NCBI RefSeq assembly: GCF_008629685.1
Contig: NZ_VWSF01000029.1
Coordinates: 26,687 to 58,686 of the forward strand
Source of the DNA: Adhaeribacter rhizoryzae
GTDB lineage: Bacteria; Bacteroidota; Bacteroidia; Cytophagales; Hymenobacteraceae
Reading direction: 5' to 3'
DNA length: 32,000 bases
Shown: in pieces, positions 1,390 to 24,285 of the stretch
How the letters are laid out: every line of letters begins with the position of its first letter
Numbering within the stretch: the stretch's first letter is position 1
The notes under the pieces: model-generated
Database searches by the model: none
What the model was told of the DNA's origin: nothing
What the model saw: the letters and a program-made list of their open reading frames with translations, nothing else
Translations under genes and position numbers: made by a program

Positions 1390-1431
1390 ACCCCAATTCA
1401 CCGGGCCTACTAGAGCAAAAATTCTGTTAAG

Positions 1432-1464
1432 AAAAAGTCCTGTCGCTTGGTACAGGGCTTTTTC
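1432..1464 (+). terminator. Rho-independent terminator after the surface-protein gene
   Basis: aaaaagtcctgt (1432-1443) pairs with acagggcttttt (1452-1463), with one G-T wobble and an 8-nt loop. A T-run follows. It lies 43 nt after the stop codon. Confidence 0.6.
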
Positions 1465-1497
1465 TTAACTGCTGTTAAAGCAACCGAAATAGCCCTT

Positions 1498-1602
1498 TTA
1501 ATAAATGGCAAGGTATATACTTATAATTTCCCTGAATAATACTTTACCTCAGCCCTAATGAGCACGCCTGAAGTTGTAAGAATATACCTTGCCATTTATT
1601 AA
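1498..1602. repeat. 105-bp unit bounded by perfect 21-bp inverted repeats (MITE-like or long hairpin)
   Basis: ttaataaatggcaaggtatat at 1498-1518 is the exact reverse complement of atataccttgccatttattaa at 1582-1602. The spacer is 63 bp and noncoding. Confidence 0.5.
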
Positions 1603-2001
1603 ACATTTCAGTTTTAAGTGTTCCCTCCTCTAAATGTCACCTATATAACAAAACCACCAGTCAGCTTATAAATAACATGATGTAAATCAGCTTATTAACT
1701 GACATCCCTCCTTTAACTTATGGTAATGGTTGATTAAGTTTGTTATCACAATGTCCTGACCGATTTGGCAATATTTGGTTAAATCTGGATTGCACTATAG
1801 AAGATTCCGAATAAAACCGGGAATTAGAAAGTACTACGCTATTACTAGAGAGAGATTAGTGGCGCTATAAGTACATGAAAAGAAGCATACGCTAACCGCT
1901 AAAAATTTAAAGTCTGACAAAAGTTTTTATCTGTATTCTCTGTTGGCAAATCAAAGCCTAGAGTAACTGTATTAAATATCTAAACAAAGAACTATTATAA
2001 A

Positions 2002-4849: not shown

Positions 4850-5227
4850 ATGAATAATAGGAATTTAAAAGAAACTGTAAAAAGGAATTATCCGTCTGCA
4901 AAGAAAAGAAAAATTGTCGAAGAACTTCGTTCCGGCATGCTGACTATCCGGCAAAGCACCAAGCAATACCAGGTGTCGGTATCTAACTTACAAGATTGGA
5001 GCCGCTGGTACTATAAAACTAGATTGTTAAAATATTTTAGACCAAAACCATCTTTGCTTATGGAGCCCACCCTTAATCAACTAAAGCAGCAATTAGCCGC
5101 TGCCCAAGCACAATTAGCGCAGGAAAAATTAAAGACGACCGCTTTAGAAACTATGATTTCGGTGGCTGAAAAACAATTAAATATAGAAATCAGAAAAAAG
5201 TATGGTTCCAAGCAGTCCAGCAGTTAA
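4850..5227 (+). CDS. IS3-family transposase OrfA (HTH plus leucine-zipper-like coiled coil)
   Basis: 125 aa. A helix-turn-helix region (IRQSTKQYQVSVSNLQDWSRWY) is followed by a coiled coil (LNQLKQQLAAAQAQLAQEKLK). The slippery site lies near the 3' end. Confidence 0.75.
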   Translation: MNNRNLKETVKRNYPSAKKRKIVEELRSGMLTIRQSTKQYQVSVSNLQDWSRWYYKTRLLKYFRPKPSLLMEPTLNQLKQQLAAAQAQLAQEKLKTTALETMISVAEKQLNIEIRKKYGSKQSSS

Positions 5228-5235
5228 ACCTACAA

Positions 5236-5775
5236 TTGCCCGTTAGCCGTCCCAACCAGCTATGGGTAAGCGATATTACCTATATCAGAACGGGGAATGA
5301 TTTTAGCTATTTAAGTTTAATCACGGACGCTTATTCCCATAAAATTGTAGGTTGGGCGGTAAGGGAAACATTGCATACCACAGGACCTTTAACCGCCTTG
5401 CAAATGGCCGTTAAGACTTTACAAAAGGGAAAAGAAAGCCTGATTCATCATTCTGACCGCGGCTTACAGTACTGCTGTCAGGATTATATTAAGTTGCTCT
5501 CCTCCCATACTATTCAAATCAGTATGACCAATCAGGGAGACCCGGGAGAAAATTCCATTGCCGAACGCATTAACAGGACCATTAAAGAAGAATTCCATTG
5601 CCAGGCCTTTCTTACTTTTGAATAGGCCCAAGCTGCTATAGCCAAGACGATACAAGCTTACAACAATCTACGCCCCCACGCCTCCTGTGATTACCTAACT
5701 CCCAGCCAGGCACACCAGCAGGAAATTCCGCTAAAAAAGCGGTGGCGAAAATATGAAAGAAAAAACTACCAATAA
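5236..5775 (+). pseudogene. IS3-family transposase OrfB (rve/DDE domain), N-terminally deleted and interrupted by an in-frame TAG
   Basis: The motifs WVSDITYI, HSDRGLQY and NSIAERINRTIKEE (D, D, E) are present. An in-frame TAG sits at 5623-5625, after which the same frame continues AQAAIAKTIQAYNNLRPHASCDYLTPSQAH...* to 5775. Only about 15 codons separate the slippery site from the WVSDITYI motif, where I would expect several-fold more from memory of intact IS3 OrfB proteins. Confidence 0.8.
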
Positions 5776-5947
5776 GGACTAGTTAGTAGATAAATCAAAT
5801 AGAACTTTAACCGTATAACCTGTAAAGTATTTTCAGGAACCTACCTACTTGCAGATTCCGGAAAAAACCTTTTCAAACTTGGAGTAGTATTTGGTAGTTT
5901 TATTTAACTGGTTCAATTTGGTTTGAGTAACAGTTGGAAAAAAGTGT

Positions 5948-6433
5948 CTACGATTTGGACGGGACTGAAATGGTTAAAAGAGACAAATCTCCTGCTTCAT
6001 TGTTGTTGCGAATATAAGCTTGCCCGTTTTGTACATCCTGAACCAAGTCCTGGATGGTTTTGGTGGAGAATAATGCAGCCAAGCCATCGCGGTATTTCTT
6101 GAAATCGTTGTGTAACGGGCACGGATGTGAATCGGAGCATTGTTTTAAACCTAAACCACATTTTTTAAAAGCTTCTACTCCATCAATTACCCGCACAACA
6201 TCCATAATAGTAATTTCACTGGCGGTACGGCTCAGGTAAAAACCGCCATTCGGGCCTTTTACCGAAGAGATAATGCTTTTGCGTACTAAATCCTGCAATA
6301 TTTTGCCAATAAAATGAAGCGGTAGTTCCAGTTCTTTTGCAATTTCTTTAATGCCTATCTTTTTCCCTTCGGCAGCCTGCATAGCTACGTAAACAATGGA
6401 GCGCAAAGCATATTCTGAAGTTTTAGTTAACAT
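5948..6433 (-). CDS. Rrf2-family transcriptional regulator (NsrR/IscR-like, three-Cys cluster motif)
   Basis: The N-terminus MLTKTSEYALRSIVYVA and a winged-helix region match Rrf2. The motif CGLGLKQCSDSHPCPLH supplies three Cys spaced as in Fe-S-binding Rrf2 members. Confidence 0.85.
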   Translation of the reverse strand: MLTKTSEYALRSIVYVAMQAAEGKKIGIKEIAKELELPLHFIGKILQDLVRKSIISSVKGPNGGFYLSRTASEITIMDVVRVIDGVEAFKKCGLGLKQCSDSHPCPLHNDFKKYRDGLAALFSTKTIQDLVQDVQNGQAYIRNNNEAGDLSLLTISVPSKS

Positions 6434-6634: not shown

Positions 6635-7000
6635 CTAAAAAAAGTGGTCCCACAAGCTGCCGCCGTGATCGCGGTTTTGGGATTGGTAGCCGCCATTTAG
6701 TTGAGCTTGTCCGGCTTCTGAAATCATGTCGGAATCCCACATGGGTATCCACACCAGTTCTACTATTATTTTATAACCGGGGTAATTTTTTTCTAAAACA
6801 TTGGTTACAGCATTGGTAATCATCTGTCCCATGGGGCAACCTGGCGAAGTTAAAGTCATGTTAATGGTTATGGTTTTATCTTCCGATAATGCCACTTCGT
6901 AAACCAAACCTAAATCCACAATATTTAACCCAATTTCCGGGTCAATTACTTCTTTTAGTACTTCGAAAATATTTGCGCCAAAATTACTTTCCGTTGTCAT
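6635..7000 (-). CDS. DUF59/MIP18-family Fe-S cluster assembly protein
   Basis: The motifs VLKEVIDPEIGLNIVDLGLVY and MTLTSPGCPMG are the hallmark DUF59 motifs. Size is 121 aa. Confidence 0.8.
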   Translation of the reverse strand: MTTESNFGANIFEVLKEVIDPEIGLNIVDLGLVYEVALSEDKTITINMTLTSPGCPMGQMITNAVTNVLEKNYPGYKIIVELVWIPMWDSDMISEAGQAQLNGGYQSQNRDHGGSLWDHFF

Positions 7001-7013
7001 TTTGATTTTCTTT

Positions 7014-8288
7014 TTAATTAGTTTTCAGGCCTTTACTTAAAAGCTTAAATACATTAATATTATAAATAAGAGCAGTGAGCAGAAAAAGACCACTACCGGC
7101 TTTTAAAAGAACTGGTTGAACCCAGGCCACGCCGATTAATAAGGTTACTAATCCTAAAAAATAGCTGATATTTTGCCAGCGCACCCAGCTTTCGCGGTAC
7201 AAATCTTTGGGCTGCGGCACTGCCTGCTTCCCTACCAGATGCTGGTACCTGTGCATCCACACAATAAAAGGTAAAGTCTTGTATGTCTGGCCTAATATTA
7301 AAGCCGAGATAAAGCCGAGGAAAATGGAAATACCATAGGCCAGGTACCATTGTAAACGCGTTTTTTCGGGCATAGGCGCCTGCTCACTTACGGCTACTAC
7401 CAGCACTATCGGTAGCACCATTAGAGCTACCGCTACTAGTGATTGCTGCATACCCGCATCTACTTTTTTGCGAACCCGGTGGCGGTAAGCTTGTACTACG
7501 AAACAGCCAAATAATAGCATACCTGCTCCCACGGCCAAGGCATAAATTGTTTGGTAAGGCGTATGCAGAAACAAATGGTCGACGCTGAACAGCAATAAAC
7601 CCAGGTTAATCAGGTAATAGCTCCCGGAAAGTAATTTGGTTGGCAGCTTGTGCGTCAGCAGAAACATGGGCAATAATTTGGAACCTACGCCAATAATCAG
7701 CAACAAAAACCAGCCGGCCATGCCTACGTGCGCGTGTAGTTTTAAGTAATGCAGGTGCGATTCTTTCAGAAACGGATAAGAAAAGTTAAAGGCCATCAGC
7801 AACCCAATAACACCGGTTGTGAGTAACCAAATGCCCGAGGTGAAGATAAAATCGGCTTCTATGGTCCAGTTTTTGGTTTGCCGGGTAGTCAAAAACAAAT
7901 TCAGGTTGAAAAGCAAAAAAGAAATAACCAAAAAACAGGAAGCCATGTATAATGGCAGCCCAACCGAAAAAGTCCAGAAGGCATATGCCAGCATTAAGGT
8001 ACCGACGGCTAAAAACCCAAAGGTGAACAAAGCTAACTTGGCGCTGAACAAGGGCACTTGCAAAATAACCGGCAGCAACTGATACAACGACCCGAAAATA
8101 ATCATGGTGGCCCACCCCAAAACAGCCACGTGGGTGAGGGTTAGAAGCTTGGGATGGAAATAATGCCCCACCAAGGCATCTTCAGAAAAAAGCAATAAAA
8201 TACCCAGAGCTAAAAAGGAAAGTGCGGCAAAGGCAAAGTGCGGCAGTACCACTGATTTAGGAGCAGGTTTAGCAGTTATGAAGTTCAT
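7014..8288 (-). CDS. 12-TM membrane protein with an internal three-fold repeat; distantly heme-copper-oxidase-subunit-I-like (tentative)
   Basis: The ORF is open to 8354, but the ATG at 8288 (MNFITAKPAPKS) cuts the overlap with the upstream gene from 86 nt to 20 nt. There are about 12 hydrophobic helices. TM2, TM6 and TM10 share the motif (T/A)HV...GW......G....LLP. Confidence 0.8.
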   Translation of the reverse strand: MNFITAKPAPKSVVLPHFAFAALSFLALGILLLFSEDALVGHYFHPKLLTLTHVAVLGWATMIIFGSLYQLLPVILQVPLFSAKLALFTFGFLAVGTLMLAYAFWTFSVGLPLYMASCFLVISFLLFNLNLFLTTRQTKNWTIEADFIFTSGIWLLTTGVIGLLMAFNFSYPFLKESHLHYLKLHAHVGMAGWFLLLIIGVGSKLLPMFLLTHKLPTKLLSGSYYLINLGLLLFSVDHLFLHTPYQTIYALAVGAGMLLFGCFVVQAYRHRVRKKVDAGMQQSLVAVALMVLPIVLVVAVSEQAPMPEKTRLQWYLAYGISIFLGFISALILGQTYKTLPFIVWMHRYQHLVGKQAVPQPKDLYRESWVRWQNISYFLGLVTLLIGVAWVQPVLLKAGSGLFLLTALIYNINVFKLLSKGLKTN

Positions 8289-9105
8289 GATCAGGAATTT
8301 TATAAATAAGCAGGCGTACCTCGTCGGGGCCAGGTTCTGCAATGGCAAAGGCAAAGCCGCGGGCTGTTAGCTCTTGTAATAAATATTGGGGTATCCGACA
8401 ATGGTAAACAAACAAGGCCTGCTCCGGAGTAAGTTTGAATAGCGCCTCCAAAATATTCATCATGGGCTGCGGCATTTCCAAATTTCTAACGTCTATTTCT
8501 ATCAGGCTGTGTTGGTATTGTTGCTGCAGTCTTTCGAAAGAATTTAAAAAATCTGGCCCTGATATAGCATTATTTTCGGGTTTATCGGTTCGATAGAAAT
8601 AAGTATGTACTAAGTTTTCCTCGGTCTGGTCAGTATAATGCGTAAAACCTTTTTTTCGGAGTACTGCATACAACGGAACGGGTTCAAACGTATTAATAAT
8701 TAACATGCTTTGATTTTTGGAGAGTTTTTCGGCGGCAGTAATTATTTCTTTAAACGGGTCCTGGCCGGCTTGTAAGGTTTCGCGCACATCTAAAGTAATG
8801 CCAAGCGGCGGGAAAGCGGGCTGAGAAGAAGGGGCCGAAATCTTGGTCCCTTCTCCTACCCTATCAGAAACAAACCCTAAACTTTTTAATTTATCAAAAA
8901 ACACCTCCACTTTTGTGCCACCAATGCGGGCCGCATCCGCTATTGTTACCCGCGAAGCCAGCACTTTACGCAATATTGGATTTCGCAACTTTTCGAAATG
9001 CTTGTTAATAGAAGCAATAACTTCAATTGCTGCTGGATTCGCCCGTATAATGGTAGAAATGCGGGTATTGGCACTAATTTTAAGGAATTGTGTTTGCGTG
9101 CTCAT
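8269..9105 (-). CDS. DUF1858 domain plus two DUF2249 domains
   Basis: The N-terminal ~75 aa (ANTRISTIIRANPAAIEVI...ILRKVLASRVTIADAARIGG) resemble the DUF1858/ScdA-N-like hairpin. Two later segments, LDVRETLQAGQDPFKEI...LIINTFEPVPLYAVLRKKGF and IDVRNLEMPQPMMNILEAL...FVYHCRIPQYLLQEL, are DUF2249-like. Confidence 0.75.
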   Translation of the reverse strand: MSTQTQFLKISANTRISTIIRANPAAIEVIASINKHFEKLRNPILRKVLASRVTIADAARIGGTKVEVFFDKLKSLGFVSDRVGEGTKISAPSSQPAFPPLGITLDVRETLQAGQDPFKEIITAAEKLSKNQSMLIINTFEPVPLYAVLRKKGFTHYTDQTEENLVHTYFYRTDKPENNAISGPDFLNSFERLQQQYQHSLIEIDVRNLEMPQPMMNILEALFKLTPEQALFVYHCRIPQYLLQELTARGFAFAIAEPGPDEVRLLIYKIPDHELHNC

Positions 9106-9123: not shown

Positions 9124-9627
9124 TTACATTTCAACCGGTTGAGAAAGCCAAAATGCAGGCTCAAAATCATCGGTTGGCTCAACGGCATATTTATCCATTT
9201 CTAAACCAATCAATATTAATTGACCGGGCGTAGCAACTTGCTCCAGGTACGGGAAAAATATCCGCTCTTCGAAGCGTACGTGCTCTTTTACTAAAATTTG
9301 CAAGGTATTCAGCACGTAATCAATATTCTCCCGATAACAGGAAAGGTAATTTACGACACTGCGGATGAGGTCGTGGTCTTGTTGTACCCGAAACCGCATG
9401 GGGTCCGCTTCGGATAAAACCTGCACCACAATTTTCTCTTCTTTTTCCAGGTGGTTTTCTAAATGATTATCCCAGAAGTAGCGGATATAATCTTGAATAA
9501 TATGGCTATCTACTTTGCGAGCCAATCCTTGTTTTATTTTCCAGGCGAAAAGCAGTTCAAAATGGTGCTCCCGTGATAGGCCTACCAGTTCCGGATGTCT
9601 TTTCAGGGGTTGTACTATCGTTTCCAT
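9124..9627 (-). CDS. Hemerythrin-like (HHE cation-binding) domain protein
   Basis: Spaced His/Glu motifs: LSREHHFELLF, HLEKEEKIV, and a C-terminal EHVRFEERIFFPYLE. Size is 167 aa. Confidence 0.75.
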   Translation of the reverse strand: METIVQPLKRHPELVGLSREHHFELLFAWKIKQGLARKVDSHIIQDYIRYFWDNHLENHLEKEEKIVVQVLSEADPMRFRVQQDHDLIRSVVNYLSCYRENIDYVLNTLQILVKEHVRFEERIFFPYLEQVATPGQLILIGLEMDKYAVEPTDDFEPAFWLSQPVEM

Positions 9628-9682: not shown

Positions 9683-10633
9683 TCAGGAAAGTACTTTTTG
9701 CTCTAACGCAATGGCTTTCGGAAACAGAATATTATTTTCAAGGTGTATGTGCTGGTGCAGGTCGCTCTCAAATTCCTGCAGTTTGGCAAAAGCCAGGCGG
9801 TAAGTAGTGCAACCATCTACCGGTACGGTATAGTTATCACTTAATTCCCGGATAGCTTCCAGAGAATTGCCGGCCGCTTCGTGTTCCATCTCCATCATGT
9901 TAATCGGATTTTGGATGCTGCCAAAGCCGGGAGTTACTACAGAAACGCCAGCTTTATCTGCTTCATTTAACCGACGGATATACGGGAATAATACCCGCTC
10001 TTCTTTGGGCATGTGGGCGTTTAACTCGGCTGCTATGGCCGTAAAGTGTTGGGCAATGGCTATTAATTCCGGATGTTTTTCGCCGTGTACCCGGGCAATT
10101 TTGGTAGTGTATTCGGTTAAAGCCGGCAATGATTCGCGCACGTAAGTATGGTGGGTATTTTCAATATAATCGGCCAGGAAGCTTAAATCCCAAGCCCCAA
10201 AATTCTGGGAGCGGGCTACTGGCGTTTCGGTTAGGGCATTCAGTTCCTGTTCTACCTGGGCTAGGCTAATGCCTTTTTCCTGGCAGGCACGCGCTACCGA
10301 TTTTTTGCCGCCACAGCAGAAATCAAGGCCGTATTTCTTAAATATTTCAGCTTTGCGGTAATCTTTGGCAACTAACTCCCCAATAGTTTCACCTTCCTTG
10401 GGATTAAGTTTGGTTATGCGTACTTCCCAAATTTCCGGCCCCTGCGACAAATATTCCCATTTAAAAATATTACCACGCTCACCTAAAAGTTGGTAATAAA
10501 GAGGTTTGGGGTCGTGGTCGTTGTGAATTACAAAATATTCGCCGCCAGCTAAAGCATCAAACCGGTTAAAAATGGTAGGGTGTTTTAAACGCGGTTCTAT
10601 TACGGTTACATCTAAAAAATCGAGGGTTTCCAT
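9683..10633 (-). CDS. ric: Repair-of-iron-centres di-iron protein (RIC/ScdA/YtfE family) with an N-terminal DUF2249 fusion
   Basis: aa 1-75 are DUF2249-like (LDVTVIEPRLKHPTIFNRFDAL..GEYFVIHNDHDPKPLYYQL). A ScdA_N motif follows (KYGLDFCCGGKKSVARAC). Next come hemerythrin-type repeats (HHTYVRE, MPKEERVLFPY, EHEAAG, HIHLENNILFP). Confidence 0.85.
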   Translation of the reverse strand: METLDFLDVTVIEPRLKHPTIFNRFDALAGGEYFVIHNDHDPKPLYYQLLGERGNIFKWEYLSQGPEIWEVRITKLNPKEGETIGELVAKDYRKAEIFKKYGLDFCCGGKKSVARACQEKGISLAQVEQELNALTETPVARSQNFGAWDLSFLADYIENTHHTYVRESLPALTEYTTKIARVHGEKHPELIAIAQHFTAIAAELNAHMPKEERVLFPYIRRLNEADKAGVSVVTPGFGSIQNPINMMEMEHEAAGNSLEAIRELSDNYTVPVDGCTTYRLAFAKLQEFESDLHQHIHLENNILFPKAIALEQKVLS

Positions 10634-10756
10634 GCGGATTTTGTTTATGAAATTATTTTTTTTATTAAGTTATTTAAAGATAAAAAGTAATAATCAAAAA
10701 TAAAATATATTTTACTCTTTTTTTCTTTATTTACAGCTTAAGCTAATTTATAGAAG

Positions 10757-10788
10757 TAAAAAGGCCCGCTTTATCTGCCAGGCCTTTC
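10757..10788 (-). terminator. Rho-independent terminator downstream of norB
   Basis: On the minus strand: aaaggcc tggcagataaagcg ggccttttt. A 7-bp GC-rich stem is followed by a T-run, starting 7 nt after the norB stop. Confidence 0.6.
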
Positions 10789-10794
10789 GTCTAA

Positions 10795-13131
10795 TTAGCT
10801 GTTTACTTCTTCTGTTATTTCTCTGGAAGTAGGAACAGGTTCGCCAACAGGTTCAATAGTTGGGTAATCATCCGGCGAAATATCGGTGTGGGGTTGTAAT
10901 GACCAACCGGTCTTCAAGCCAATTACAAACCAGGCCAGGGCTACCACTCCTAAGGCAAAAATGGTATCTCCTATTACCCGCAGCCAGCGCAAAATTTCCA
11001 TGGTATCGGTTTGCATAAATTCCATGGAGCGGGCATACCATAAACCATGTTCTACACTGGCCCAGGTTTGCAGCAAACCCACTGGTAACACACTTATTAG
11101 TACCATCAGGCCCAGCCCAATATTTATACTCCAGAAAGCAAAACTAATAACACTGTCTTTCCAAACGTTGCGGGCAGCCATACCTTTGAGCGCGAACAGC
11201 ATTAAACCAATTCCCAAAACTCCGTATACCCCGAATAAAGCGGTGTGACCGTGTACCGGCGTGGTATTTAAGCCTTGCATATAGTAGAGTGCAATAGGCG
11301 GATTGATAACGAAACCAAAAATACCAGCTCCTACCAAATTCCAGAAAGCCACCGCAATAAAGCAGTAAATAGGCCACTTGTAAGCTTTAATCCAGGTGGT
11401 AGAGCGGCTTAGTTCCAGGTTATGGTAAGCTTCAAAACCGATTAATACCAGAGGCACTACTTCTAGAGCGCTAAAAGTGGCGCCCAAAGCCAGCACCGAA
11501 GTAGGCGTACCACTGAAATACAGGTGGTGAAACGTGCCAATAATACCGCCAAACAAGAAAATAATGGTGGAAAATAATACTGTTGGCGTGGCAATTTTGG
11601 TACGCAGTAAACCCATCCGCACGAACAAAAAGGCAATTACCACAGTAGCAAAAACTTCAAAGAAACCTTCTACCCACAGGTGCACCACCCACCAGCGCCA
11701 GTACTCGGCAATGGCCAGGTTAGTTTGGCGGCCCCACATCAGGCCAGCGCCGTAGAATACCGCAATGGCTACCGATGAAATCAGGAACATACCCAACAAA
11801 TGGCGGCCTTCAGCATCTTTTTTAAATGCTGGCCAGATGGCGCGGGTCATTAAAAACAACCACAAAAACAAACCTACCAGCAGGAATATTTGCCAGAAAC
11901 GGCCTAAATCTACGTATTCATACCCTTGGTGCCCAAACCAGAAATTTTCTACCAGACCTAGTTTCTGCATTACACCAAACCACTGCCCGGCCAAAGAACC
12001 TACTACTATGATTAGTAAGGCAATAAAAAGCAAGTTTACGCCGGCCCGCTGGAATTTAGGTTCGTGGCCTGATACCGCCGGGGCAATAAATAAGCCGGTC
12101 GCCAACCAGGAAGTCGCAATCCAGAAAATAGCCAGTTGCACGTGCCAGGTGCGGGAGATAGAGTAAGGTAAAATATCGGCCAGTGGCAAACCGTAGAGTG
12201 CCTGCCCTTCTACGCCGTAGTGCGCCGTAACCACACCCATAATTACTTGTACCAATATTAAGGACGTTACAGTCCAGAAATATTTAAGCGTAGCACGCAT
12301 AGAGGGCGTTGGCTCCAAGCCCAGCAGCGGGTCTTTCTGTGGCAGTTTGCTTACATCTAGCTCTTCTTCTTTATTTGAAGCATAATAATAGGCTAATAAC
12401 CCAATGCCCGCAATCAGTACAATTACGCTAAAGCCTGTCCAGATAATCAGGTCGCTGCTGGGTTTATTGCCGACTAACTTTTCGTGGGGCCAGTTATTGG
12501 TGTAAGATATATTTTGGCCAGGGCGTTCGGTCACGCAGGCCCAGGAAGCCCAGAAGAAAAAGGCATTCATCTGGCGCATCCGTTCCGGGTCTTTAATGCT
12601 GTTATCCGGAATGGCGTAAGCTTCGCGGTATTTGGCCATGTCGGCATCATTCATAAATAAACCGGTATAGTAGCGGCTTACATCGGCAATGGCGGCGGCC
12701 CGCACATCCAAAATAGTTATGGTGTTGGCCTGATTATTATAAGTATTTTGCCGGATTTGTGTTTGCAACCGAGCTTCTAAACCGGCCTTGCTTTCGTTAT
12801 CTAAATCAGAAAACTTTTCACCTTTCTCCGCGGTGGCCCAAATATCCAGCATATACATGGCTTCTTTGTGCAGCCACTCAGCCGTCCAGTCGGGTGCCTG
12901 GTAAGCGCCATGGCCCCAGATGGAACCTACTTCCTGCCCGCCCATCGATTGCCAAACATTTTGTCCGTTTTTAATGTCCTGGGCTGTAAATAAAACCTGG
13001 CCTGAAGCCGAAACTACTTTATCCGGAATGGGGGGTGCTTGCCGGTAAATCTCCGAACCATAATACCCTAAAACGGCAAAAGACCCGACTATTACGGCTA
13101 TAAATCCGAGCCATAATTTGGTGTATTTCAT
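10795..13131 (-). CDS. norB: Quinol-dependent nitric oxide reductase (qNOR, single-subunit NorB/NorZ type)
   Basis: 778 aa. An N-terminal TM helix and a ~200-aa periplasmic extension (GQNVWQSMGGQEVGSIWGHGAY) precede a heme-copper core carrying WWVVHLWVEGFFEVF, FHHLYFSG and VHGHTALFGVYG. Confidence 0.95.
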   Translation of the reverse strand: MKYTKLWLGFIAVIVGSFAVLGYYGSEIYRQAPPIPDKVVSASGQVLFTAQDIKNGQNVWQSMGGQEVGSIWGHGAYQAPDWTAEWLHKEAMYMLDIWATAEKGEKFSDLDNESKAGLEARLQTQIRQNTYNNQANTITILDVRAAAIADVSRYYTGLFMNDADMAKYREAYAIPDNSIKDPERMRQMNAFFFWASWACVTERPGQNISYTNNWPHEKLVGNKPSSDLIIWTGFSVIVLIAGIGLLAYYYASNKEEELDVSKLPQKDPLLGLEPTPSMRATLKYFWTVTSLILVQVIMGVVTAHYGVEGQALYGLPLADILPYSISRTWHVQLAIFWIATSWLATGLFIAPAVSGHEPKFQRAGVNLLFIALLIIVVGSLAGQWFGVMQKLGLVENFWFGHQGYEYVDLGRFWQIFLLVGLFLWLFLMTRAIWPAFKKDAEGRHLLGMFLISSVAIAVFYGAGLMWGRQTNLAIAEYWRWWVVHLWVEGFFEVFATVVIAFLFVRMGLLRTKIATPTVLFSTIIFLFGGIIGTFHHLYFSGTPTSVLALGATFSALEVVPLVLIGFEAYHNLELSRSTTWIKAYKWPIYCFIAVAFWNLVGAGIFGFVINPPIALYYMQGLNTTPVHGHTALFGVYGVLGIGLMLFALKGMAARNVWKDSVISFAFWSINIGLGLMVLISVLPVGLLQTWASVEHGLWYARSMEFMQTDTMEILRWLRVIGDTIFALGVVALAWFVIGLKTGWSLQPHTDISPDDYPTIEPVGEPVPTSREITEEVNS

Positions 13132-13324
13132 AACAATTGTAATTAATGATGAACAAGAAATTTTAAAATTGACATGCTGATTTATGTTCCTTTATTTAGC
13201 TGTAAAAGCGATTACATGGACAAAAACAACAAATAATCCAATTATTAACCTGTAGCGATAATCATTCTGAATGCTATTGGTGCTTTTTCAAGAGATAAAA
13301 GTATATTTATCTTAAATGCTGGCT

Positions 13325-14516: not shown

Positions 14517-16016
14517 ATGCCCGATGAAAGTCTTGTAAGTTTTACGTCGCATAAAATATTATTTCTGAATACCCTGGCTTTTACGGTTTGTTTTGCCGCC
14601 TGGATGCTGAACGGGGTATTGGTAACATACTTAACGGATAACGGGATTTTTGAATGGAGCATGGTACAAATTGGCTGGCTCCTGGGTGTACCAGTCCTAA
14701 CTGGGTCTTTATTCAGGTTGCCCATTGGGATTTTAACCGACCGGATAGGCGGTAAATGGGTTTTTGGTATTTTGCTATTGTTTTGTTCCGTTCCCATGTT
14801 CCTGCTTTCCCAGGCCAATAGCTATTCTACCTTTTTACTTTTGAGCTTTTTGTTTGGCATGGCCGGTACCAGTTTTGCGGTTGGGGTGGGCTATACATCC
14901 GTTTGGTATCCCAAAAGCTGGCAAGGACGAGCTATTGGTATATTTGGTATGGGTAGCGCCGGTGCTTCGCTTACCACTTTAATCGGACCTTCCTTATTAA
15001 ATAACCTAACGGCTGGTGGTGCCAATCCGGAAGGTTGGCGACAATTACCGGTTATTTATGCGGGGGCCTTGCTGGCAATGGCTATCTTGTTTTTGATTTT
15101 TGCCCAAAATAAAAAACCTGTTGCGGCCGGTAAGTCTCTGCAGGCTATTGTTATGCCCCTAACACAAATTAGGGTGTGGCGTTTTGGCTTGTATTATTTT
15201 CTGCTCTTCGGCTGTTTTGTAACTTTCTCGCAGTGGCTGGTTCCATATTTTGTGAATGTTTATCAGACAGACCTTATTCTGGCGGGTTTACTTGCCTCCA
15301 CTTTTAGTTTGCCCGCCGGATTGTTCCGGGCGGTAGGCGGCTTTCTTTCGGATAAATACGGTGCCCGAAAAGTAATGTATGGGGTCTTGGGCTGTTCAGT
15401 AATACTCAGTTTCTTTTTAATTATTCCCCGCATGGAAATTTCTTCACCCGGCTCGGGGGTAATGGCTACCAGCGCTGGTACTGTAACATCGGTATCAGAC
15501 ACAGCTATTACGGTAAATAATAAAACATATCCGGTTACGGCCAAAAGTAATATGTTTGAACATGTTAACAGAAAGGCATTGGTTTTTCCGGCTAAAGAAA
15601 GCTGGCACGAGGTTTTGGTAAAGCCCGGCGATAAAGTAACTAAAAAACAATTACTGGCACAGGGCACTACCCGTATTTACTTCAAGGCCAATATGTGGGT
15701 ATTTATTGGATTGGTGATGTTTATTGGCATGGCGTGGGGCATTGGTACAGCTGCGGTGTTTAAACATATTCCGGAATATTTTCCTACTCAAATTGGCTTG
15801 GTTGGCGGTATGGTAGGCTTAATTGGTGGGCTTGGCGGCTTTGTCGGGCCAATTTTGTTTGGCTATTTACTTAGTACTACTGGCCTCTGGACCAGTTCCT
15901 GGATGTTTGTCCTGCTACTTTCCATTATTTGCCTCGTTTGGATGCACCTGATTATTACCCGGATGATGAACCGGAGTGCTCCCGATTTGGCTGATAAATT
16001 TGAACATCCGCACTAA
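14517..16016 (+). CDS. narK: MFS nitrate/nitrite transporter (NarK/NasA family) with an inserted ~88-aa loop domain
   Basis: A 12-TM MFS layout. Nitrate/nitrite-porter-like Gly-rich motifs are present (FGMAGTSFAVGVGYTS, GGLGGFVGPILFG), as are conserved Arg-containing helices (SLFRLPIGILTDRIGGK, GLFRAVGGFLSDKYG). An extra soluble segment covers aa 305-392. Confidence 0.85.
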   Translation: MPDESLVSFTSHKILFLNTLAFTVCFAAWMLNGVLVTYLTDNGIFEWSMVQIGWLLGVPVLTGSLFRLPIGILTDRIGGKWVFGILLLFCSVPMFLLSQANSYSTFLLLSFLFGMAGTSFAVGVGYTSVWYPKSWQGRAIGIFGMGSAGASLTTLIGPSLLNNLTAGGANPEGWRQLPVIYAGALLAMAILFLIFAQNKKPVAAGKSLQAIVMPLTQIRVWRFGLYYFLLFGCFVTFSQWLVPYFVNVYQTDLILAGLLASTFSLPAGLFRAVGGFLSDKYGARKVMYGVLGCSVILSFFLIIPRMEISSPGSGVMATSAGTVTSVSDTAITVNNKTYPVTAKSNMFEHVNRKALVFPAKESWHEVLVKPGDKVTKKQLLAQGTTRIYFKANMWVFIGLVMFIGMAWGIGTAAVFKHIPEYFPTQIGLVGGMVGLIGGLGGFVGPILFGYLLSTTGLWTSSWMFVLLLSIICLVWMHLIITRMMNRSAPDLADKFEHPH

Positions 16017-16469: not shown

Positions 16470-17000
16470 TTAAGTGCTACTGGTGTTAAACGGGTTGGCG
16501 GCGTTGGTTTCAAATTCTTTCACGTAAATATCTTCCCCTTTTATTACCACCTCTAACCGGGGTAAGGGCCGGGGCGGTGGTCCTGCCAAAACTTCGCCGG
16601 TTAAGGCATCAAACCAGCCATCGTGACAGGGGCATTCTATTTTGCCGCTTTTCGGCATATAAAATACGGCACACGATAAATGCGTACACTTTTGCTCATA
16701 AGCACGGAATTCGTCGGTTTCGAGGCGGATAAGAATATAGGGTATGGTGCTGCCGGTAATAACAAACGAGCGTGTGCCGCCTTTAGGCAGTTCGCTTTTT
16801 TTACAAACCAAGTGCTCCCCCTGCACTTTTTCGGGTGGAAAAAAATTTGCTTTAACCGCGACGTAACCGCTACCGGTAGCCAACCCACCCGAAACCAGGC
16901 AAAGAAATTTAGCAAAATCGCGGCGGGTAACCTGGGTTGCTTCCAGTTGCTCTATCGGGAAATCTTCTTTCCAGTGATTATCTTTTTCGTCGGTTGCCAT
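16470..17000 (-). CDS. Rieske [2Fe-2S] protein, bc-type, with a twin-arginine / TM-anchor N-terminus
   Basis: QVTRRDFAKFLCLVSGGLATGSG is a Tat-like RR motif followed by a hydrophobic helix. The cluster boxes CTHLSC and CPCHDG include the two extra Cys typical of disulfide-stabilised, high-potential Rieske proteins. Confidence 0.85.
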   Translation of the reverse strand: MATDEKDNHWKEDFPIEQLEATQVTRRDFAKFLCLVSGGLATGSGYVAVKANFFPPEKVQGEHLVCKKSELPKGGTRSFVITGSTIPYILIRLETDEFRAYEQKCTHLSCAVFYMPKSGKIECPCHDGWFDALTGEVLAGPPPRPLPRLEVVIKGEDIYVKEFETNAANPFNTSST

Positions 17001-17004
17001 AATG

Positions 17005-17574
17005 CTAGTCTACAATTAATTGGGTACTCCCCTTCGGCATCATAATATTTACTTTAGTGCTTACCTTTTCATTACCGAAAAGGAAATTATTGACCGGTGT
17101 ACTGTTGGGCCGCATCCGGGCCATTTCTTCGCGGGTGCCGTAATAAAGAGCCTGGGTGGGGCAAACCGTAGCGCACATGGGCTTTTTGCCAGCGCTGGTC
17201 CGGTCGTAGCACATGTTACACTTCATCATTAAATCGTAAGCCTCATTCTTTTTGGGTACCCCAAACGGACAAGCCATTACACAATTAGAGCAGCCAATGC
17301 AACGAGCCGTGTTAGCTGTATGCACCACTCCAAACTCATCTTTCGAGATGGCATCGGCCGGGCAAACGTTAGCGCAAACCGGGTCGTCGCAGTGCATACA
17401 CACCTGCACGGTGGTCTGAATGGTAACCGCCCGGTCTACGTAATTGACGTGTATCATCGATTCGTGGCCGTTGGTTTCGCATTCGGCACAAGCCATTTCG
17501 CAGGCTCTGCATCCGATACACCGCTGCATATCCACAAAAAATTCTTGCTGGGTTTGATAATTGGTTTGGGGCAT
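17005..17574 (-). CDS. Four-cluster [4Fe-4S] ferredoxin subunit (DmsB/NrfC/HybA-like)
   Basis: Four Cys groups: CIGCRACEMAC, CMHCDDPVCANVCP, CIGCSNCVMACP, CNMCYDR...CATVCP. 189 aa with no signal peptide. Confidence 0.85.
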   Translation of the reverse strand: MPQTNYQTQQEFFVDMQRCIGCRACEMACAECETNGHESMIHVNYVDRAVTIQTTVQVCMHCDDPVCANVCPADAISKDEFGVVHTANTARCIGCSNCVMACPFGVPKKNEAYDLMMKCNMCYDRTSAGKKPMCATVCPTQALYYGTREEMARMRPNSTPVNNFLFGNEKVSTKVNIMMPKGSTQLIVD

Positions 17575-17600
17575 ACTGTTATGTTTTAGCTTACAAAATA

Positions 17601-19850
17601 TTATGCACTGGCAAAAGCATTAGACTCCTGCGAAGGCGGCGCTTTAATTCCTAATGGCTCTAACTTACAAGCACATACCTTAAACTCCGGAATTTTGGAT
17701 ATCGGGTCCAGCGTACCAGGGGTAAACTGGTTAGCTGATTTTTTCCCGGGCCAGTGATACGGCAGAAAGACCGTATCGCGCCGGATAGTTTCTACAATAT
17801 TCGCCGGGAATTCATCCGTTCCGCGCCGGGTAGAAACCCGCACCAGTTCGTCCTGATGGATGTTATATTTTAAGGCCAGTTCCGGATGTATTTCCAGCTT
17901 GGGCTCCGGATAAATATCTACTAATTTGCCAATTCGGCGGGTTTGAGTACCGCTTAAATATTGCGATACTACCCGGCCGGTAGTTAAAACCACGGGGTAC
18001 AAATCATCGGTAACTTCGCCTGGTTCCCGATAAGCAACGGCATTAAAGTGGGCCTTGCCATCGGGAGTAGCAAACTTTTTATCTTCCCATAAACGAGGCG
18101 TACCCGGATGGTCTAACGTGGGACAGGGCCAGAAAACGCCCATTTTTTCTTCAATTTTTTGGTAGGTAATGCCAAAATAATCGGCGGTGCCGCCCTTAGA
18201 AGCTACCCGCAATTCATTAAATATATCTTCGCTGGAGTTGTACCGGAATTTATCGCCTGCTCCTAATCGCTCGGCTAATTCTAATATAATAGCGGTATCG
18301 GTACGCGCCTCACCCGGTGGACTTACCGCCCGCCGAATTCTTACTACTCTGCCTTCGGCAGTAGTAACGGTTCCTTCCTCTTCTTCGTGCAACGAACCAG
18401 GCAAAATTATATCGGCGTGGCGGGCTGTTTCGTTCATGAAAAAATCGATGCACATGTAAAACTCCAGTTTCTCCAGAGCCTCGCGTACATAGTTGTTGTT
18501 GGGTAGCGATACCAACGGATTAAAGCAAATGGAAATCAATCCTTTTACTTCGCCCCGGTGAATGGCTTCAATCAGTTCGTAAGCCGTAAGCCCTTTGCCC
18601 GGCATATCTTTTTCGTCTATGCCCCAAACCTGGGAAATATATTTACGATGCTCCGGATTGGTGATGTCGCGGTTGCCGGGCAATTGGTCGCATTTATGGC
18701 CGTGTTCGCGGCCGCCTTGGCCATTACCCTGGCCGGTAATGGTACCGTAACCGCAATAAGGTTTGCCTATCCGGCCGGTAGCCAGTACTAGGTTTATGCA
18801 ACCCAATACATTGTCTACCCCTTTGGAATGATGTTCGATGCCGCGGGCGTGCAATAAAAAACTGGTAGCCGCTTTGCCCCACCACTGCGCCGCCAGTTCA
18901 ATTTTTTCTTTTTCGATGCCGGTAACTTCTTCGGCCCATTCCAGGGTATAATCTTTTACGGTGGCTAAAGCCTGGTCAAAACCGGAAGTATAATTATTTA
19001 TAAAATCATGGTCCAGCATATCATGGTCGGCCAAATACTTCAACATGGCGCCATATAAAGCTGAATCGGTACCGGGCCGAATGGGCAGGTGTAAATCGGC
19101 GGTACGGGCCAGCGGAATTACGCGCGGGTCTACTACAATTAGTTTCGCACCGTAATCGCGGGCCCGCCATATCCAATGCGTCAAAGTCGGGAATGTTTCA
19201 CTTACATTGGCACCGGCCACCAAAATTACTTCAGCCCGCTCTAAGTCCTCAAACGTATTCGAAATCCGGTCGAGGCCAAAAGCTTTCTTGTTGCCGGCAC
19301 CCGCGCTTACCATGCACAAGCGGCCATTATAATCGAGGTTAGCGGTTTTAAGTGCCACCCGGGCAAATTTCCCCACCAGGTAGCTTTTTTCATTAGTTAA
19401 CGAAACGCCCGACAACATGGCAAAAGCATCGTTGCCGTACTGCGCCTTAATGCGTTTAATTTCTGAAACGGTTTTTTCCATGGCGGCATCCCATGGAACC
19501 GGGGTAAACCCTACTCCTTCCTGCCGCTGCAAAGGTTGCAACAGGCGGTCGGGGTGGTTGTTTTGCATGTAGCGCTGCACACCTTTGGGGCATAAGCGGC
19601 CTTCGTTAAACGGGAACTCCATCCACGGGTCGAAACCAACTACTTTATTCTTTTTAACCAACAGCTTAATGCCGCACTGCATACCGCAAAAACAGCAATG
19701 CGTTTTTACCACCGCATCCGGTTCATCGCGGCCTAAGAAACCTTCGTGCGAAGGATAATTTTTGTGGGGTCCAAATTGGGCAATCAGTTTTTCGGGAGAT
19801 ACCGGAAGATACGCCATATTAGTTCTTTTAACCGAATAATTTACCGCCAT
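17601..19850 (-). CDS. Molybdopterin (bis-MGD) oxidoreductase catalytic subunit, Nas/NarB/Nap-like nitrate-reductase type, no signal peptide
   Basis: 749 aa. An N-terminal 4Fe-4S motif [10 protein letters not shown]...RLCPKG is present. The segment [18 protein letters not shown] resembles the Cys-Mo-ligand region of Cys-ligated nitrate reductases. There is no RR motif. An alternative start is M12 at 19817 ([10 protein letters not shown]). Confidence 0.85.
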
Positions 19851-20895
19851 CCTGCTGGCGGGCCTTGAGGTGAGCCATACCCAACCGCGAACGTTTTCCT
19901 TCGGGGCTTAAATCCAGGTGAGAAGTTCCGTCTGCCCGGGTAAAATCAAAACCTAGCTCTTTGGTTACCGTTTTTAAATCGTCTATATGCATCTGGGTCG
20001 CGAATTCTTTACCGGTATGCGGACAAACGGCCATGCCTCTTTTAATACCTTCTCTTTTGTAGATGTGGGCGCCAATTTGGGCCGGCCGCTGAATAATATG
20101 AAAAAACTTACCAAATGGAATCCAAATCAAAAACATGATAACTGTTACAGCGTGGGTTACGGCCATAAAATCATAGGCCATGCCTTTCATAAACTGGTAA
20201 TCGTAGGTTAATCCTAAACCGGTAATAGAAATAGCCAGCAGCAGTATTAAAGGCAGTAAATCGCCATCGAAGGATTGGATAGAAATTAAACCGGCGTGGG
20301 TTAGCCGGCGGCGCATAAAAATCAGCACCCCAATTATTACCAGCCAAGAACACCAGTTAAGGGCATGAAACGTGAAGAAAGCAATAAAAGAACCAAGCGG
20401 AAATTCAAAAACCTTAAATCCAAAAAAATGTGCTTCGTACATGCGAACGCTATCGGGGTTCAGACTGGTTTCGGGATTGAGGGTAAAATGAATCCAGCCA
20501 AAAGTGAGCGGAAAAGTAATGGCAAAGGCCATGGTACAACCTACGGCCATTAAAAAGTGACCAATCCACCGGCTGCGGCCTCTGGGATAAATAAATTTCT
20601 GAAAACCAATATTCTGAATGAATTCTTTTATAAAAAAGTACAAGTGCGCAAACACTTGGCCTTTAAATACAAACTGCCAGGTACGTTTAAAATACATCCA
20701 GGTGGGTGGCCGTTGCAGCCAAACCGAATACCGGTACACAATTCCAAAAAAGGCGAATACCGTTCCGAATAAATAACCAATCAGGGCCGGGTCAAAATTC
20801 TGTAGTTTGCGGGAGCCGTAAAAGACCGTTGCTATCACCAAAACAGAAACCAGCGTTGCTATCAGAATTGCTTTTCGGTTGAGGGTGGTATTCAT
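19828..20895 (-). CDS. Polytopic membrane protein, NarI/HdrE/DsrM-like (putative di-heme cytochrome b) with a ~80-aa cytoplasmic tail
   Basis: 355 aa with about 6 TM helices that carry His residues ([20 protein letters not shown]). The last helix, [15 protein letters not shown], resembles the PF.K..H motif of the NarI-gamma family (from memory, not computed). It overlaps the Mo-subunit ORF by 23 nt. Confidence 0.7.
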
Positions 20896-21222
20896 GCGTA
20901 ACTTTTAAAATTGGAACAAAAGTTATTGATGATATAGGTATAAGTACGAATATATTCCCAAAGGTTTGGCTGCTTTCGCAAAAAACAAGAATTTACTAAG
21001 CCTTAAAATCTTTGGATTTCGTTAAAAAGCCTTCTTAATACTTTTGATAAACCGTATTAAATAAAATGAGTATCAACTACTTTCGATTTTTATAAGTTTA
21101 GTAAATACAGAAGGGAATAGCTATCATAAATTAATAAAAAAAATTTTTTTTATGATATTTCTGTTCATATCTGCCGTAAAACACCAATTTATAAATTACT
21201 GAACCTTTATCACAGACGTAAT

Positions 21223-22344
21223 ATGAAAGAGGTGAACTTATTTCTGGAAAAATTCGACAAGCAAATTAAGTTAAAAGGTTTTGGCGTGCCGGGCCAGGAA
21301 GCATTGACCAATGCCAAGGTTCTGGTGATTGGTGCCGGGGCACTGGGTATTCCGGTAATTACTTACCTGGCTGCTGCGGGCGTTGGCAACCTGGGAGTAG
21401 TTGAACCCGGTATGGTTTCTTTATCAGATTTACCCTTGCAGCCTTTGTTTAAGAGCAACGAAGTAGGCAAAGCTAAACTAGCGAGCGTGGTTCAGCACGT
21501 AAGAGATTTAAATCCGGATACAACCCTGCAACTGTACGATTATGCGCTGGATGCAGAAAATGCACTTCAAAGAATATCCCGGTATGAAGTAGTAGTAGAT
21601 GCTACTAATAATTTAAAATCAGCTTTATTAATGAATGATGCCTGCGTAATTGCGGGTGTACCGCTTGTCTTTGGCTTGGTTTACCAATACACTGGTATGT
21701 ACTGTGTATTAAATTTTAAAAAAAGCGCCACCTTGCGTTGTATGAAGTCGGATGCTAAGCTGCGGAAATATTTGAATGAAGACGAGTCGGACGGGGTATT
21801 AGGTATTCTGCCCGGTATAATTGGCTGCCACCTGGCAGGAGAAGTGGTAAAAATAATAAGTAACCTGGGCGATGTACTTGCTAATAAGCTTCTAAGCTAC
21901 GATTTCCTGAAAAACCAGCAACAGGAATTAAAGGCCACTCTTAACCCGGAGAACCTAAAAATAGAAACACTACAAGAGCCTTATTTTTCCACTGAAATAC
22001 CTCAAGTAAATAAAAAAATACAGTCGATTACGCCGCATCAGCTTTTCTTAAAATTAAACTATCAGGAATCGCTACAACTGATTGATATCCGGGAGGATGA
22101 AGAATGGAACATTTTCCATTTGGAAAATGCCATCCATATACCGGCCAGTGAATTTCTAAATAATTTAGATAAAATTCACCAGGATATTGCTGTAATATTA
22201 ATTTCCCATAAAGGTGAAATCAGTAAAGAACTTACTGACTTACTTTTAACGAAACATGGGTTTGGCAATATTTATAATTTAGCAGGAGGAATTGATGCCT
22301 GGGCGCGAGAAATTGACCAATCTATGGCAACTTATAAAGGGTAA
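21223..22344 (+). CDS. ThiF/MoeB-family adenylyltransferase-like protein with a C-terminal rhodanese-homology domain (divergent)
   Basis: A Rossmann motif VLVIGAGALGIPVITYLAAAGVG is present. The C-terminal ~110 aa are rhodanese-like (LIDIREDEEWNIFHLENAIHIP...NLAGGIDAW). Several canonical catalytic positions appear substituted (see findings). Confidence 0.75.
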   Translation: MKEVNLFLEKFDKQIKLKGFGVPGQEALTNAKVLVIGAGALGIPVITYLAAAGVGNLGVVEPGMVSLSDLPLQPLFKSNEVGKAKLASVVQHVRDLNPDTTLQLYDYALDAENALQRISRYEVVVDATNNLKSALLMNDACVIAGVPLVFGLVYQYTGMYCVLNFKKSATLRCMKSDAKLRKYLNEDESDGVLGILPGIIGCHLAGEVVKIISNLGDVLANKLLSYDFLKNQQQELKATLNPENLKIETLQEPYFSTEIPQVNKKIQSITPHQLFLKLNYQESLQLIDIREDEEWNIFHLENAIHIPASEFLNNLDKIHQDIAVILISHKGEISKELTDLLLTKHGFGNIYNLAGGIDAWAREIDQSMATYKG

Positions 22345-23496: not shown

Positions 23497-24285
23497 TTAA
23501 AAATCCTTATTTTGTACTTTTTTCAGGAATAGCAGCAGCGGAACAAATATCCACACTAATAACGCCCCCAATGAAACCACCATGCCCAGCGCCGTACCTA
23601 AAAATTTATTAAATACCGCCCCGGTGTAGCCCAGCAAAGCGGCCGTTTCGAGGCGTAGTAAAATCAGAATACGTGACAAGTCGATAGGATTAAATAATGT
23701 CAGACCGATGGTGGCTTTCTCTAAAGGATAATCGTTGAAGATAACCAGGAAAGTTAGCAGCAGGCCGTCGTAAATAACGGCGGCAAACAGCCAGATCAGG
23801 ATAGCAATGCCAAAACCTTTTACCCGGTCTTCGAACAACGCCGACATCAGGAAAGCCAAACCGGTAAAAATGGCCGTAAGCAAGGTCCCACACAGCGTAA
23901 GCATACCCAAGTGCACACTTTCTTCGGCGGTGCCGGCAAATAATAAAAAGGTAATGCCTAAACCCAAACTCAAACTCAGCGCCAACGATAAGGTTAAGCC
24001 TAAATACTGGCCCAGAAATATATTATTGCGCTTAATAGGCTGGGCCAGCAGCAGTTCAGTAAATTCGCGGGAGTTATAGGCGTACATCACCCCAAACACC
24101 GTGCTGATAAGCGGCACCAGCAAGAGCACAATATTCAACAGACTTACAATAGCCTTGTTAAAATCGCCGGAAAAGTACAGCAGCGTGGCCGAAATTACCA
24201 GGAAAAATAACCCGTACAGCAGTGCCCACCAGCTCCGCCAGGTGTCGTAAAACGAATATTTTATGATTTTGGTGAGGGAGTTCAT
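23497..24285 (-). CDS. nosY: ABC-2 type permease NosY
   Basis: 262 aa, 6 TM, directly downstream of nosF with a 4-nt overlap, in the nosDFY order. Confidence 0.85.
   Translation of the reverse strand: MNSLTKIIKYSFYDTWRSWWALLYGLFFLVISATLLYFSGDFNKAIVSLLNIVLLLVPLISTVFGVMYAYNSREFTELLLAQPIKRNNIFLGQYLGLTLSLALSLSLGLGITFLLFAGTAEESVHLGMLTLCGTLLTAIFTGLAFLMSALFEDRVKGFGIAILIWLFAAVIYDGLLLTFLVIFNDYPLEKATIGLTLFNPIDLSRILILLRLETAALLGYTGAVFNKFLGTALGMVVSLGALLVWIFVPLLLFLKKVQNKDF

Follow-up and report, generated by a model that had tools for sequence, protein, structure and literature searches.

A divergent three-unit relative of heme-copper oxidase subunit I in a putative nitric oxide stress operon of Adhaeribacter rhizoryzae

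Background

The heme-copper oxidase (HCO) scaffold is among the most studied membrane-enzyme folds, and it has cofactor-poor relatives without assigned biochemistry. Here we describe one gene for an apparent relative of this kind in Adhaeribacter rhizoryzae. It lies in a stretch of 32,000 nucleotides (nt), called the window below (NCBI RefSeq assembly GCF_008629685.1, contig NZ_VWSF01000029.1, positions 26,687 to 58,686 of the forward strand); coordinates are those of the window unless another locus is named. The gene had been singled out by an initial annotation made from the sequence alone, which described a protein of 12 transmembrane (TM) helices with a three-fold internal repeat and a partial, oxidase-like histidine pattern.

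The closest described proteins are the HCO homologues (HCOH), a class that is not itself new, having been computationally defined in 2014. Pei, Li, Kinch and Grishin reportedly described in that year 12-TM HCOH proteins built of three evolutionary units (EU) that are most similar to TM9-12 of the HCO. Two conserved His, potential ligands of a single haem, are said to be present in most of these proteins, and their gene context is said to be that of denitrification and nitric oxide (NO) detoxification. The same authors reportedly placed in the HCOH superfamily NnrS (PF05940), a haem- and copper-containing 12-TM protein of NO-responsive regulons. The part of PMC11218638 that summarizes this work states that DUF2249 was linked to the HCO superfamily, and that some HCO homologues were connected to export of nitrogen compounds and to iron homeostasis. 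No experimental work on the HCOH family was found in our literature search.

Results and discussion

Fold and three-fold repeat

The gene and its three repeat units are arranged as follows.

7014..8288, minus strand: HCOH gene, 424 amino acids (aa), 12-TM homologue of heme-copper oxidase subunit I, N-in/C-in
7869..8288, minus strand: evolutionary unit 1, residues 1-140, TM1-4, with the best match to cbb3 TM9-12
7461..7868, minus strand: evolutionary unit 2, residues 141-276, TM5-8
7014..7460, minus strand: evolutionary unit 3, residues 277-424, TM9-12, plus the stop codon

An upstream TTG at 8354 is an alternative start that would add 22 residues; 24 of the 24 aligned homologues begin at the ATG. 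A database entry with 100% identity (Adhaeribacter rhizoryzae, Bacteroidota) bears the name 'cbb3-type cytochrome c oxidase subunit I'.

The protein is a divergent relative of heme-copper oxidase subunit I and has its fold, as the initial annotation had suspected. COX1 was the sole Pfam match (E 1.4e-7), with 31.2 bits under the gathering cut-off of 34.8, which is passed by some relatives such as P0224 at 56 bits. A search of the PDB with the sequence alone returned no match, so a family profile was required; it aligned TM2-3 of the protein with TM10-11 of the cbb3 subunit CcoN (E 3e-6) and, more weakly, matched CcoN TM2 and TM6 as well. An AlphaFold2 model computed from the 24-sequence family alignment has 12 long helices in a 4+4+4 arrangement (mean pLDDT 86, pTM 0.87), and thus the 12-TM core with pseudo-three-fold symmetry that is a feature of canonical HCO and nitric oxide reductase (NOR) catalytic subunits. 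Foldseek comparison of this model with the PDB gave, among the 50 matches listed, only catalytic subunits of HCO and NOR; the best was cbb3 3mk7 (TMq 0.77), and CyoB, CtaD and NorB were also among the matches listed. Loops on the N-terminal side carry 18 Lys and Arg versus 3 on the opposite side, which places both termini in the cytoplasm, as in oxidase subunit I.

The repeat was first noticed as a motif recurring in three helices, at residues 52-74, 186-208 and 318-341, with offsets of 134 and 132 residues. We cut the family alignment at the unit boundaries given above and compared the resulting profiles by hhalign, using either a deep alignment of 124 diverse sequences (identity down to ~24%) or a shallow one of 24 close sequences. 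All three pairs of units were significantly alike in the deep alignment: units 1 and 3 matched with E 7.9e-16 (5.8e-7 with 24 sequences), units 1 and 2 with E 5.1e-15 (3.9e-4) and units 2 and 3 with E 3.6e-14 (not significant with 24 sequences). Each of the 124-sequence matches covers the four helices in full, over ~130 columns. In nine controls, where a forward unit was compared with a column-reversed one, E was >= 0.003 and the probability <10%; since column reversal preserves composition and hydrophobicity, the repeat is not an artefact of composition. The three-fold repeat of four-helix units is real and far beyond chance, and the initial description of a 12-TM protein with such a repeat stands.

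All three units find their best match in TM9-12 of cbb3, with E 9e-12, 2e-6 and 7e-5, unit 1 being the strongest. In the same kind of profile comparison, the cbb3 units are barely alike among themselves; as the units of our protein are alike and those of cbb3 are mutually dissimilar, the former represents a more symmetric version of the oxidase fold. The sole long profile alignment with CcoN spans 174 columns (E 1.9e-6) and is rotated, laying TM2-7 of the protein on CcoN TM6-11, and profile comparison of the family with CyoB and with the qNOR encoded in the window gave nothing significant. As every unit prefers the third unit of cbb3 and the one long alignment is rotated, the register relative to the oxidases may be co-linear or circularly permuted, and the comparison below relies on the symmetry positions of the ligands. 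What a near-symmetric fold resembling EU3 does, once solved, would bear on the evolution of oxidases and NOR by triplication of a four-helix unit.

Histidine pattern and predicted cofactor sites

The central helices of the three units, TM2, TM6 and TM10, each end in a near-invariant Pro (P73, P207 and P340), from which the putative ligand positions can be counted.

8130-8132, minus strand: codon of H53, unit 1, position -20 from P73, invariant
7734-7736, minus strand: codon of H185, unit 2, first His of H-x-H, position -22 from P207, invariant
7728-7730, minus strand: codon of H187, unit 2, second His of H-x-H, position -20 from P207, 68% conserved
7335-7337, minus strand: codon of Y318, unit 3 (TM10), position -22 from P340, co-varies with H187
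Unit 1: H53 at -20, L51 at -22
Unit 2: H187 at -20, H185 at -22
Unit 3: I320 at -20, Y318 at -22

The only residues invariant in all 124 homologues are H53, H185 and G192. Other His are less frequent in the same alignment (H187 68%, H213 58%, H42 52%, H178 49%, H17 45%), and K337 of unit 3 is conserved in 96% of the sequences. The further near-invariant positions are Gly, Pro or uncharged residues (L57, Q70, V74, N130, L205, M208, F209, F341 and W344). By unit, the conserved His are H17, H42 and H53 in unit 1 and H178, H185, H187 and H213 in unit 2; none is in unit 3. The canonical set of six His (one each in TM2 and TM6, HH in TM7 and HxH in TM10) is absent from the protein, which retains two to three of these metal ligands and has no His-His pair of the TM7 type and no His in TM10. 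The neighbouring qNOR has all six (H330, H484, H535/H536 and H627/H629) and served as an internal positive control. Both remarks of the initial annotation on this point, that the six-His set could not be found and that the conserved His sit mainly in the first two repeats, were therefore accurate.

The same symmetry positions are used by the oxidases. In cbb3 CcoN, the CuB ligand H208 (TM6) is at -20 and the TM10 pair H346/H348 at -22/-20; CyoB of Escherichia coli has the haem ligand of TM2, H106, at -22 and the pair H419/H421 at -22/-20. Each cofactor pocket of the oxidases is bounded by position -20 of one unit and position -22 of the following unit: TM10(-20) and TM2(-22) enclose the low-spin haem, TM6(-20) and TM10(-22) the haem-copper centre. 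In the 174-column alignment with CcoN, H53 pairs with the TM6 His that ligates CuB and H185/H187 with the H-x-H of TM10, while the 'PHH' of TM7 falls in a gap. The predicted ligand pattern is that of the oxidase, rotated by one four-helix unit.

By this symmetry, three pockets can be predicted. As H53 and H185 are invariant and occupy the symmetry positions of the oxidase low-spin haem, the pocket between units 1 and 2 probably holds one haem b with two His ligands, close to the periplasmic side. H187 and Y318, in the pocket between units 2 and 3, may form an optional second site, present in about two thirds of the family including our protein, and the pocket between units 3 and 1 (I320 and L51) is predicted to be hydrophobic and empty. 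The CuB His-His pair has no counterpart, and the protein is predicted to be copper-less. Because the His triad of CuB/FeB and one pair of haem ligands are missing, binuclear O2 or NO reductase chemistry should be impossible, and the protein is predicted to be neither an oxidase nor a NOR.

H187 and Y318 tend to occur together: Y318 was found in 77 of the 84 sequences with H187 versus 7 of the 40 without it (Fisher p 1.5e-16). On a neighbour-joining tree, which is rough, parsimony counted 19 changes for residue 187 and 22 for residue 318, and 8 of these fell on the same branch versus 1.7 expected (p 4e-5). This excess of same-branch changes points to functional coupling apart from shared ancestry.

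Operon and synteny

The genes around the HCOH gene, all on the minus strand, run in the order qNOR, DUF2249-RIC, hemerythrin, DUF1858-DUF2249x2, HCOH, DUF59 and Rrf2.

10795..13131, minus strand: qNOR with the full six-His set
9683..10633, minus strand: DUF2249-RIC fusion (ScdA_N + hemerythrin; di-iron protein of iron-sulfur (Fe-S) repair), by Pfam
9124..9627, minus strand: hemerythrin-domain protein, 167 aa, by Pfam
8269..9105, minus strand: DrpB-like protein (DUF1858 + two DUF2249), by Pfam; overlaps the start of the HCOH gene by 20 nt at its 3' end
6635..7000, minus strand: DUF59/SufT-like protein (FeS_assembly_P), 13 nt downstream of the HCOH gene
5948..6433, minus strand: Rrf2-family regulator with C92-x6-C99-x5-C105

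The RIC/hemerythrin/DUF2249/DUF59 operon recognized by the initial annotation is present by Pfam and is conserved across loci. The DUF2249-RIC gene is probably the first of the operon, and an AT-rich gap lies upstream of it. Motifs of the type C-x6-C-x5-C are carried by cluster-binding NsrR/IscR-type regulators, and the Rrf2 protein is a candidate Fe-S-binding NO sensor of the NsrR type.

Synteny was studied in 80 loci found with the 24-sequence alignment. Bacteroidota account for most of these, alongside a few metagenome-assembled genomes (MAGs) of Melioribacteraceae and Chlorobiota; the HCOH gene is complete in 79 of them and truncated in one. A DUF1858-DUF2249x2 gene lies directly upstream on the same strand in 79/79 loci (80/80 including that with the truncated gene), and a DUF59 gene lies downstream in 76 of the 79 with a complete HCOH gene. 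RIC is present in 63/80 loci, Rrf2 in 51/80, hemerythrin in 41/80 and qNOR in 7/80. The expected co-occurrence with ric and DUF2249 genes was thus observed. The conserved partners of the HCOH gene are the DrpB-like and DUF59 genes, not qNOR: that the gene lies next to qNOR, as initially noted, is true in the window and is not conserved among the loci. Downstream of the qNOR stop there is a hairpin (10 bp) with a U-rich tail (10759-10788, minus strand; -14.5 kcal/mol, z = -1.6 versus shuffles). This possible terminator weakly suggests that qNOR is transcribed separately from the RIC-to-DUF59 operon.

More distant loci keep the association. The gene order is DUF2249 gene(s), HCOH, DUF59 in a Verrucomicrobiota locus and in a Symbiobacteriia MAG, and RIC, HCOH, DUF59, DUF1858-DUF2249x2 in a Gemmatimonadota locus. 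Distant loci also have NirK-type nitrite reductases, Crp/Fnr regulators and single-unit HCO-like proteins of ~150 aa. In six cluster representatives of 522-536 aa (P0086, P0133, P0140, P0147, P0166 and P0180), DUF59 is fused to the cytoplasmic C-terminus of the HCOH protein, which gives a Rosetta-stone link to the downstream gene of the window. DUF59-DUF1858 fusions have also been reported (PMC4982691). Subunits that could donate electrons (CoxB, CcoO/P or NorC) were not found next to the HCOH gene, whose neighbours are the DrpB-like and DUF59 genes; no ccoOQP genes are near it, and its 424 aa hold no additional quinol or cytochrome c domain.

Some further features of the window were recorded. 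A perfect inverted repeat, AGATAAA-N6-TTTATCT, at 13293-13312, about 160 nt upstream of the qNOR start, is a candidate operator, and a TTTTATCTTT half-site lies upstream of the RIC gene (~10670-10680). A pattern search for the E. coli-type NsrR box AAGAT-N13-ATCTT found none. A clade II (Sec-dependent) nosZ cluster occupies 23497-29482 on the minus strand, with NosZ at 27476-29482, NosD at 25016-26290 and an ABC ATPase at 24282-25028, and the window thus has genes for the reduction of both NO (qNOR) and N2O (nosZ). At 16470-20895 (minus strand) there is a NasC-like molybdopterin nitrate reductase (827 bits, under the cut-off of 1100 bits). Its cluster also encodes a DmsB-like 4Fe-4S subunit, a Rieske protein and a 355-aa protein that weakly matches the membrane anchor TmcC, a set of subunits that is unusual for an 'assimilatory' enzyme. 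An MFS transporter is encoded at 14517-16016 (plus strand). Two short ORFs with HTH and rve integrase-core domains at 4850-5625 (plus strand) resemble an IS3-like transposase fragment; they are located at the margin of the NO-stress operon, directly past the Rrf2 gene.

Proposed function and alternatives

We lean towards the view that the protein is a copper-less HCOH with a bis-His haem, acting as an NnrS-like membrane module that partners with the DrpB-like and DUF59 proteins in the protection of Fe-S proteins under NO stress. H53 (TM2) and H185 (TM6) would ligate one b-type haem on the periplasmic side, in the pocket between units 1 and 2, and H187 with Y318 would form a second site between units 2 and 3. 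On its cytoplasmic side the protein most likely binds the DrpB-like and DUF59 proteins in a complex, and its expression probably responds to NO via the Rrf2 regulator encoded just downstream. The haem module would then couple the NO or redox status of the membrane to cytoplasmic proteins for the protection or repair of Fe-S and iron centres (RIC, DUF59), without itself turning over NO. We infer haem binding, the partner complex and the link to NO, the latter from RIC, hemerythrin, the three-Cys Rrf2, qNOR and nosZ in the window and from NirK and Crp/Fnr in distant loci; any direction of signal or electron flow in the module is speculative. By analogy, an NnrS-like protective or signalling role for the RIC/DUF59 repair system seems the most likely one, which we hold with moderate confidence. 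If its function were solved, the HCOH protein would provide a membrane component for the poorly understood protection of iron centres from NO by RIC, DUF59 and DUF2249 proteins. The initial proposal of an uncharacterised NO- or O2-related membrane metalloprotein thus holds for the HCO relationship and the NO context; the class had been described in 2014, and an NO-related metalloprotein is what the residue pattern and gene context would suggest.

Several points weigh against this view. The synteny statistics come mostly from one phylum, and the -22 placement of the cbb3 TM2 His depends on manual alignment of the motif. NnrS, the functional analogue, has no detectable sequence similarity to the protein (hhalign E 0.34). 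The haem would be periplasmic and the partners are cytoplasmic, which makes direct electron transfer implausible, and a role as a pure sensor is weakened by the presence of an Rrf2 NO sensor in the operon already.

There is an outside chance that the protein is an active, copper-free enzyme with two haems. Haem 1 (H53/H185) would receive electrons from quinol or from a donor in the periplasm and pass them on to haem 2, which would have H187 as ligand and Y318 as its proximal or neighbouring Tyr, as in catalases. Turnover of NO, peroxynitrite, H2O2 or O2 would take place at haem 2, on the periplasmic side. The H185-x-H187 motif mirrors the TM10 H-x-H that bridges both haems of the HCO, H187 and Y318 co-vary as a functional pair would, and enzymes that produce or consume NO are encoded in the loci. 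However, one third of the family lacks H187 and Y318 and still keeps the operon, and the protein has neither a third or fourth metal ligand nor a conserved Glu/Tyr cluster of the NOR/HCO type. Nor is there a neighbouring electron-donor subunit of the CcoO, NorC or CoxB type, the conserved partners being cytoplasmic Fe-S-related proteins and not redox carriers. The fuller proposal, in which such an enzyme, with its sites rotated by one unit, detoxifies NO-derived oxidants (NO, peroxynitrite or H2O2) on the periplasmic side and is wired through the DUF59 and DrpB-like proteins to Fe-S repair, is unlikely. If true, the two-haem enzyme would represent a novel way of using the oxidase scaffold for catalysis, with sites rotated in comparison with all known heme-copper oxidases.

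We also regard as improbable a quinol-linked subunit for electron entry, which would serve the Fe-S repair system as a membrane reductase by maintaining the di-iron centres of RIC and hemerythrin in the reduced state. Electron transfer is a typical task of bis-His haems, and RIC and hemerythrin accompany the gene with the frequencies given above. However, in the model only ~7-9 residues separate the ligand His from the periplasmic ends of TM2 and TM6, which would leave them distant from acceptors in the cytoplasm. As neighbours, RIC and hemerythrin prove dispensable, unlike the DrpB-like and DUF59 proteins, and no quinol-site motif was identified.

Fusion to DUF59 and the membrane association of DrpB are consistent with anchoring, and the links to nitrogen-compound export and iron homeostasis in the part of PMC11218638 on Pei et al. 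would suit a scaffold or transporter free of cofactors. Such a protein could be a conduit for iron, haem or gas, or an anchor, with structural or channel-lining His, and would supply DUF59 and RIC. This seems doubtful to us, since both invariant His are exactly at the haem-ligating symmetry positions. The near-invariant residues, apart from these two His and K337, are Gly, Pro and uncharged, and Pfam gave no match to a transporter family. The idea of a decaying cbb3-type oxidase remnant without a function of its own, suggested by the automatic annotation and the partial His pattern, can be dismissed: the family counts 426 cluster representatives (50% identity clusters) at E < 1e-30, its length, motifs and synteny are conserved over at least five phyla, and ccoOQP genes are not found nearby.

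Comparison with known systems

The protein is not a canonical HCO or NOR catalytic subunit, because the six-His set, a score above the Pfam cut-off and the partner subunits are all lacking. Its best structural match is cbb3 CcoN (3mk7, 8smr and 9g83; TMq 0.72-0.77), with which it shares the TM10-like motif H-x-H-x3-L-G-W-x6-G-x2-Y-x2-L-P and the N-in topology. Unlike in CcoN, the H-x-H helix is TM6 and not TM10, the TM7 His-His is missing and there are no CcoO or CcoP partners. The database names 'cbb3-type cytochrome c oxidase subunit I' and 'cytochrome C oxidase subunit I' are misleading, as the protein has no CuB ligands and no ccoO/ccoP; the former is a widespread error, corrected here, and inflates the counts of oxidases in Bacteroidota genomes and metagenomes.

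Membership of NnrS, one of the families initially proposed for comparison, was rejected: there was no PF05940 match at E <= 0.01, and hhalign comparison with two genuine NnrS proteins, which score 389 and 264 bits against PF05940, gave the E of 0.34 quoted above. Both proteins have 12 TM helices and NO or denitrification gene contexts, and their partner genes differ. On the Agrobacterium tumefaciens plasmid pAtCFBP6625b (locus L088), a gene named 'short-chain dehydrogenase' at 20327-21559 (minus strand) is the NnrS of 389 bits and adjoins nirK; two DUF2249 genes follow norD in this locus.

The upstream partner has an architecture identical to that of DrpB from Thermus thermophilus, namely DUF1858 and two DUF2249. 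The Thermus protein has no TM segment, yet it attaches to the cytoplasmic membrane, and it is implicated in nitrate/N-oxide-dependent regulation (PMC6282519). It differs from the protein of the window in being paired with DrpA downstream of nar.

Two proteins of 150-156 aa and roughly four TM helices, encoded at 5531-6001 (plus strand) of locus L085 and 1414-1866 (plus strand) of locus L087, have weak COX1 matches and an H-x-H or H motif. Three-unit genes are found adjacent or close to theirs in Symbiobacteriia and Gemmatimonadota. The two proteins match the family at unit 2 (E 1.5e-7 and 1.2e-5) and are probably single-unit HCOH proteins. In contrast to the three-unit protein, they have one unit and are presumed to form trimers; none is encoded in the window.

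Judged by its sequence and gene neighbourhood, the protein fits the three-unit HCOH class reportedly defined by Pei et al. It has 12 TM helices in three units, similarity to TM9-12 and two invariant His, and its gene is set in a DUF2249 and denitrification or NO context. Four observations may be new: the -20/-22 symmetry rule, which reveals a ligand pattern rotated by one unit; the second site at H187/Y318; the near-universal triad of DrpB-like, HCOH and DUF59 genes; and the fusions to DUF59.

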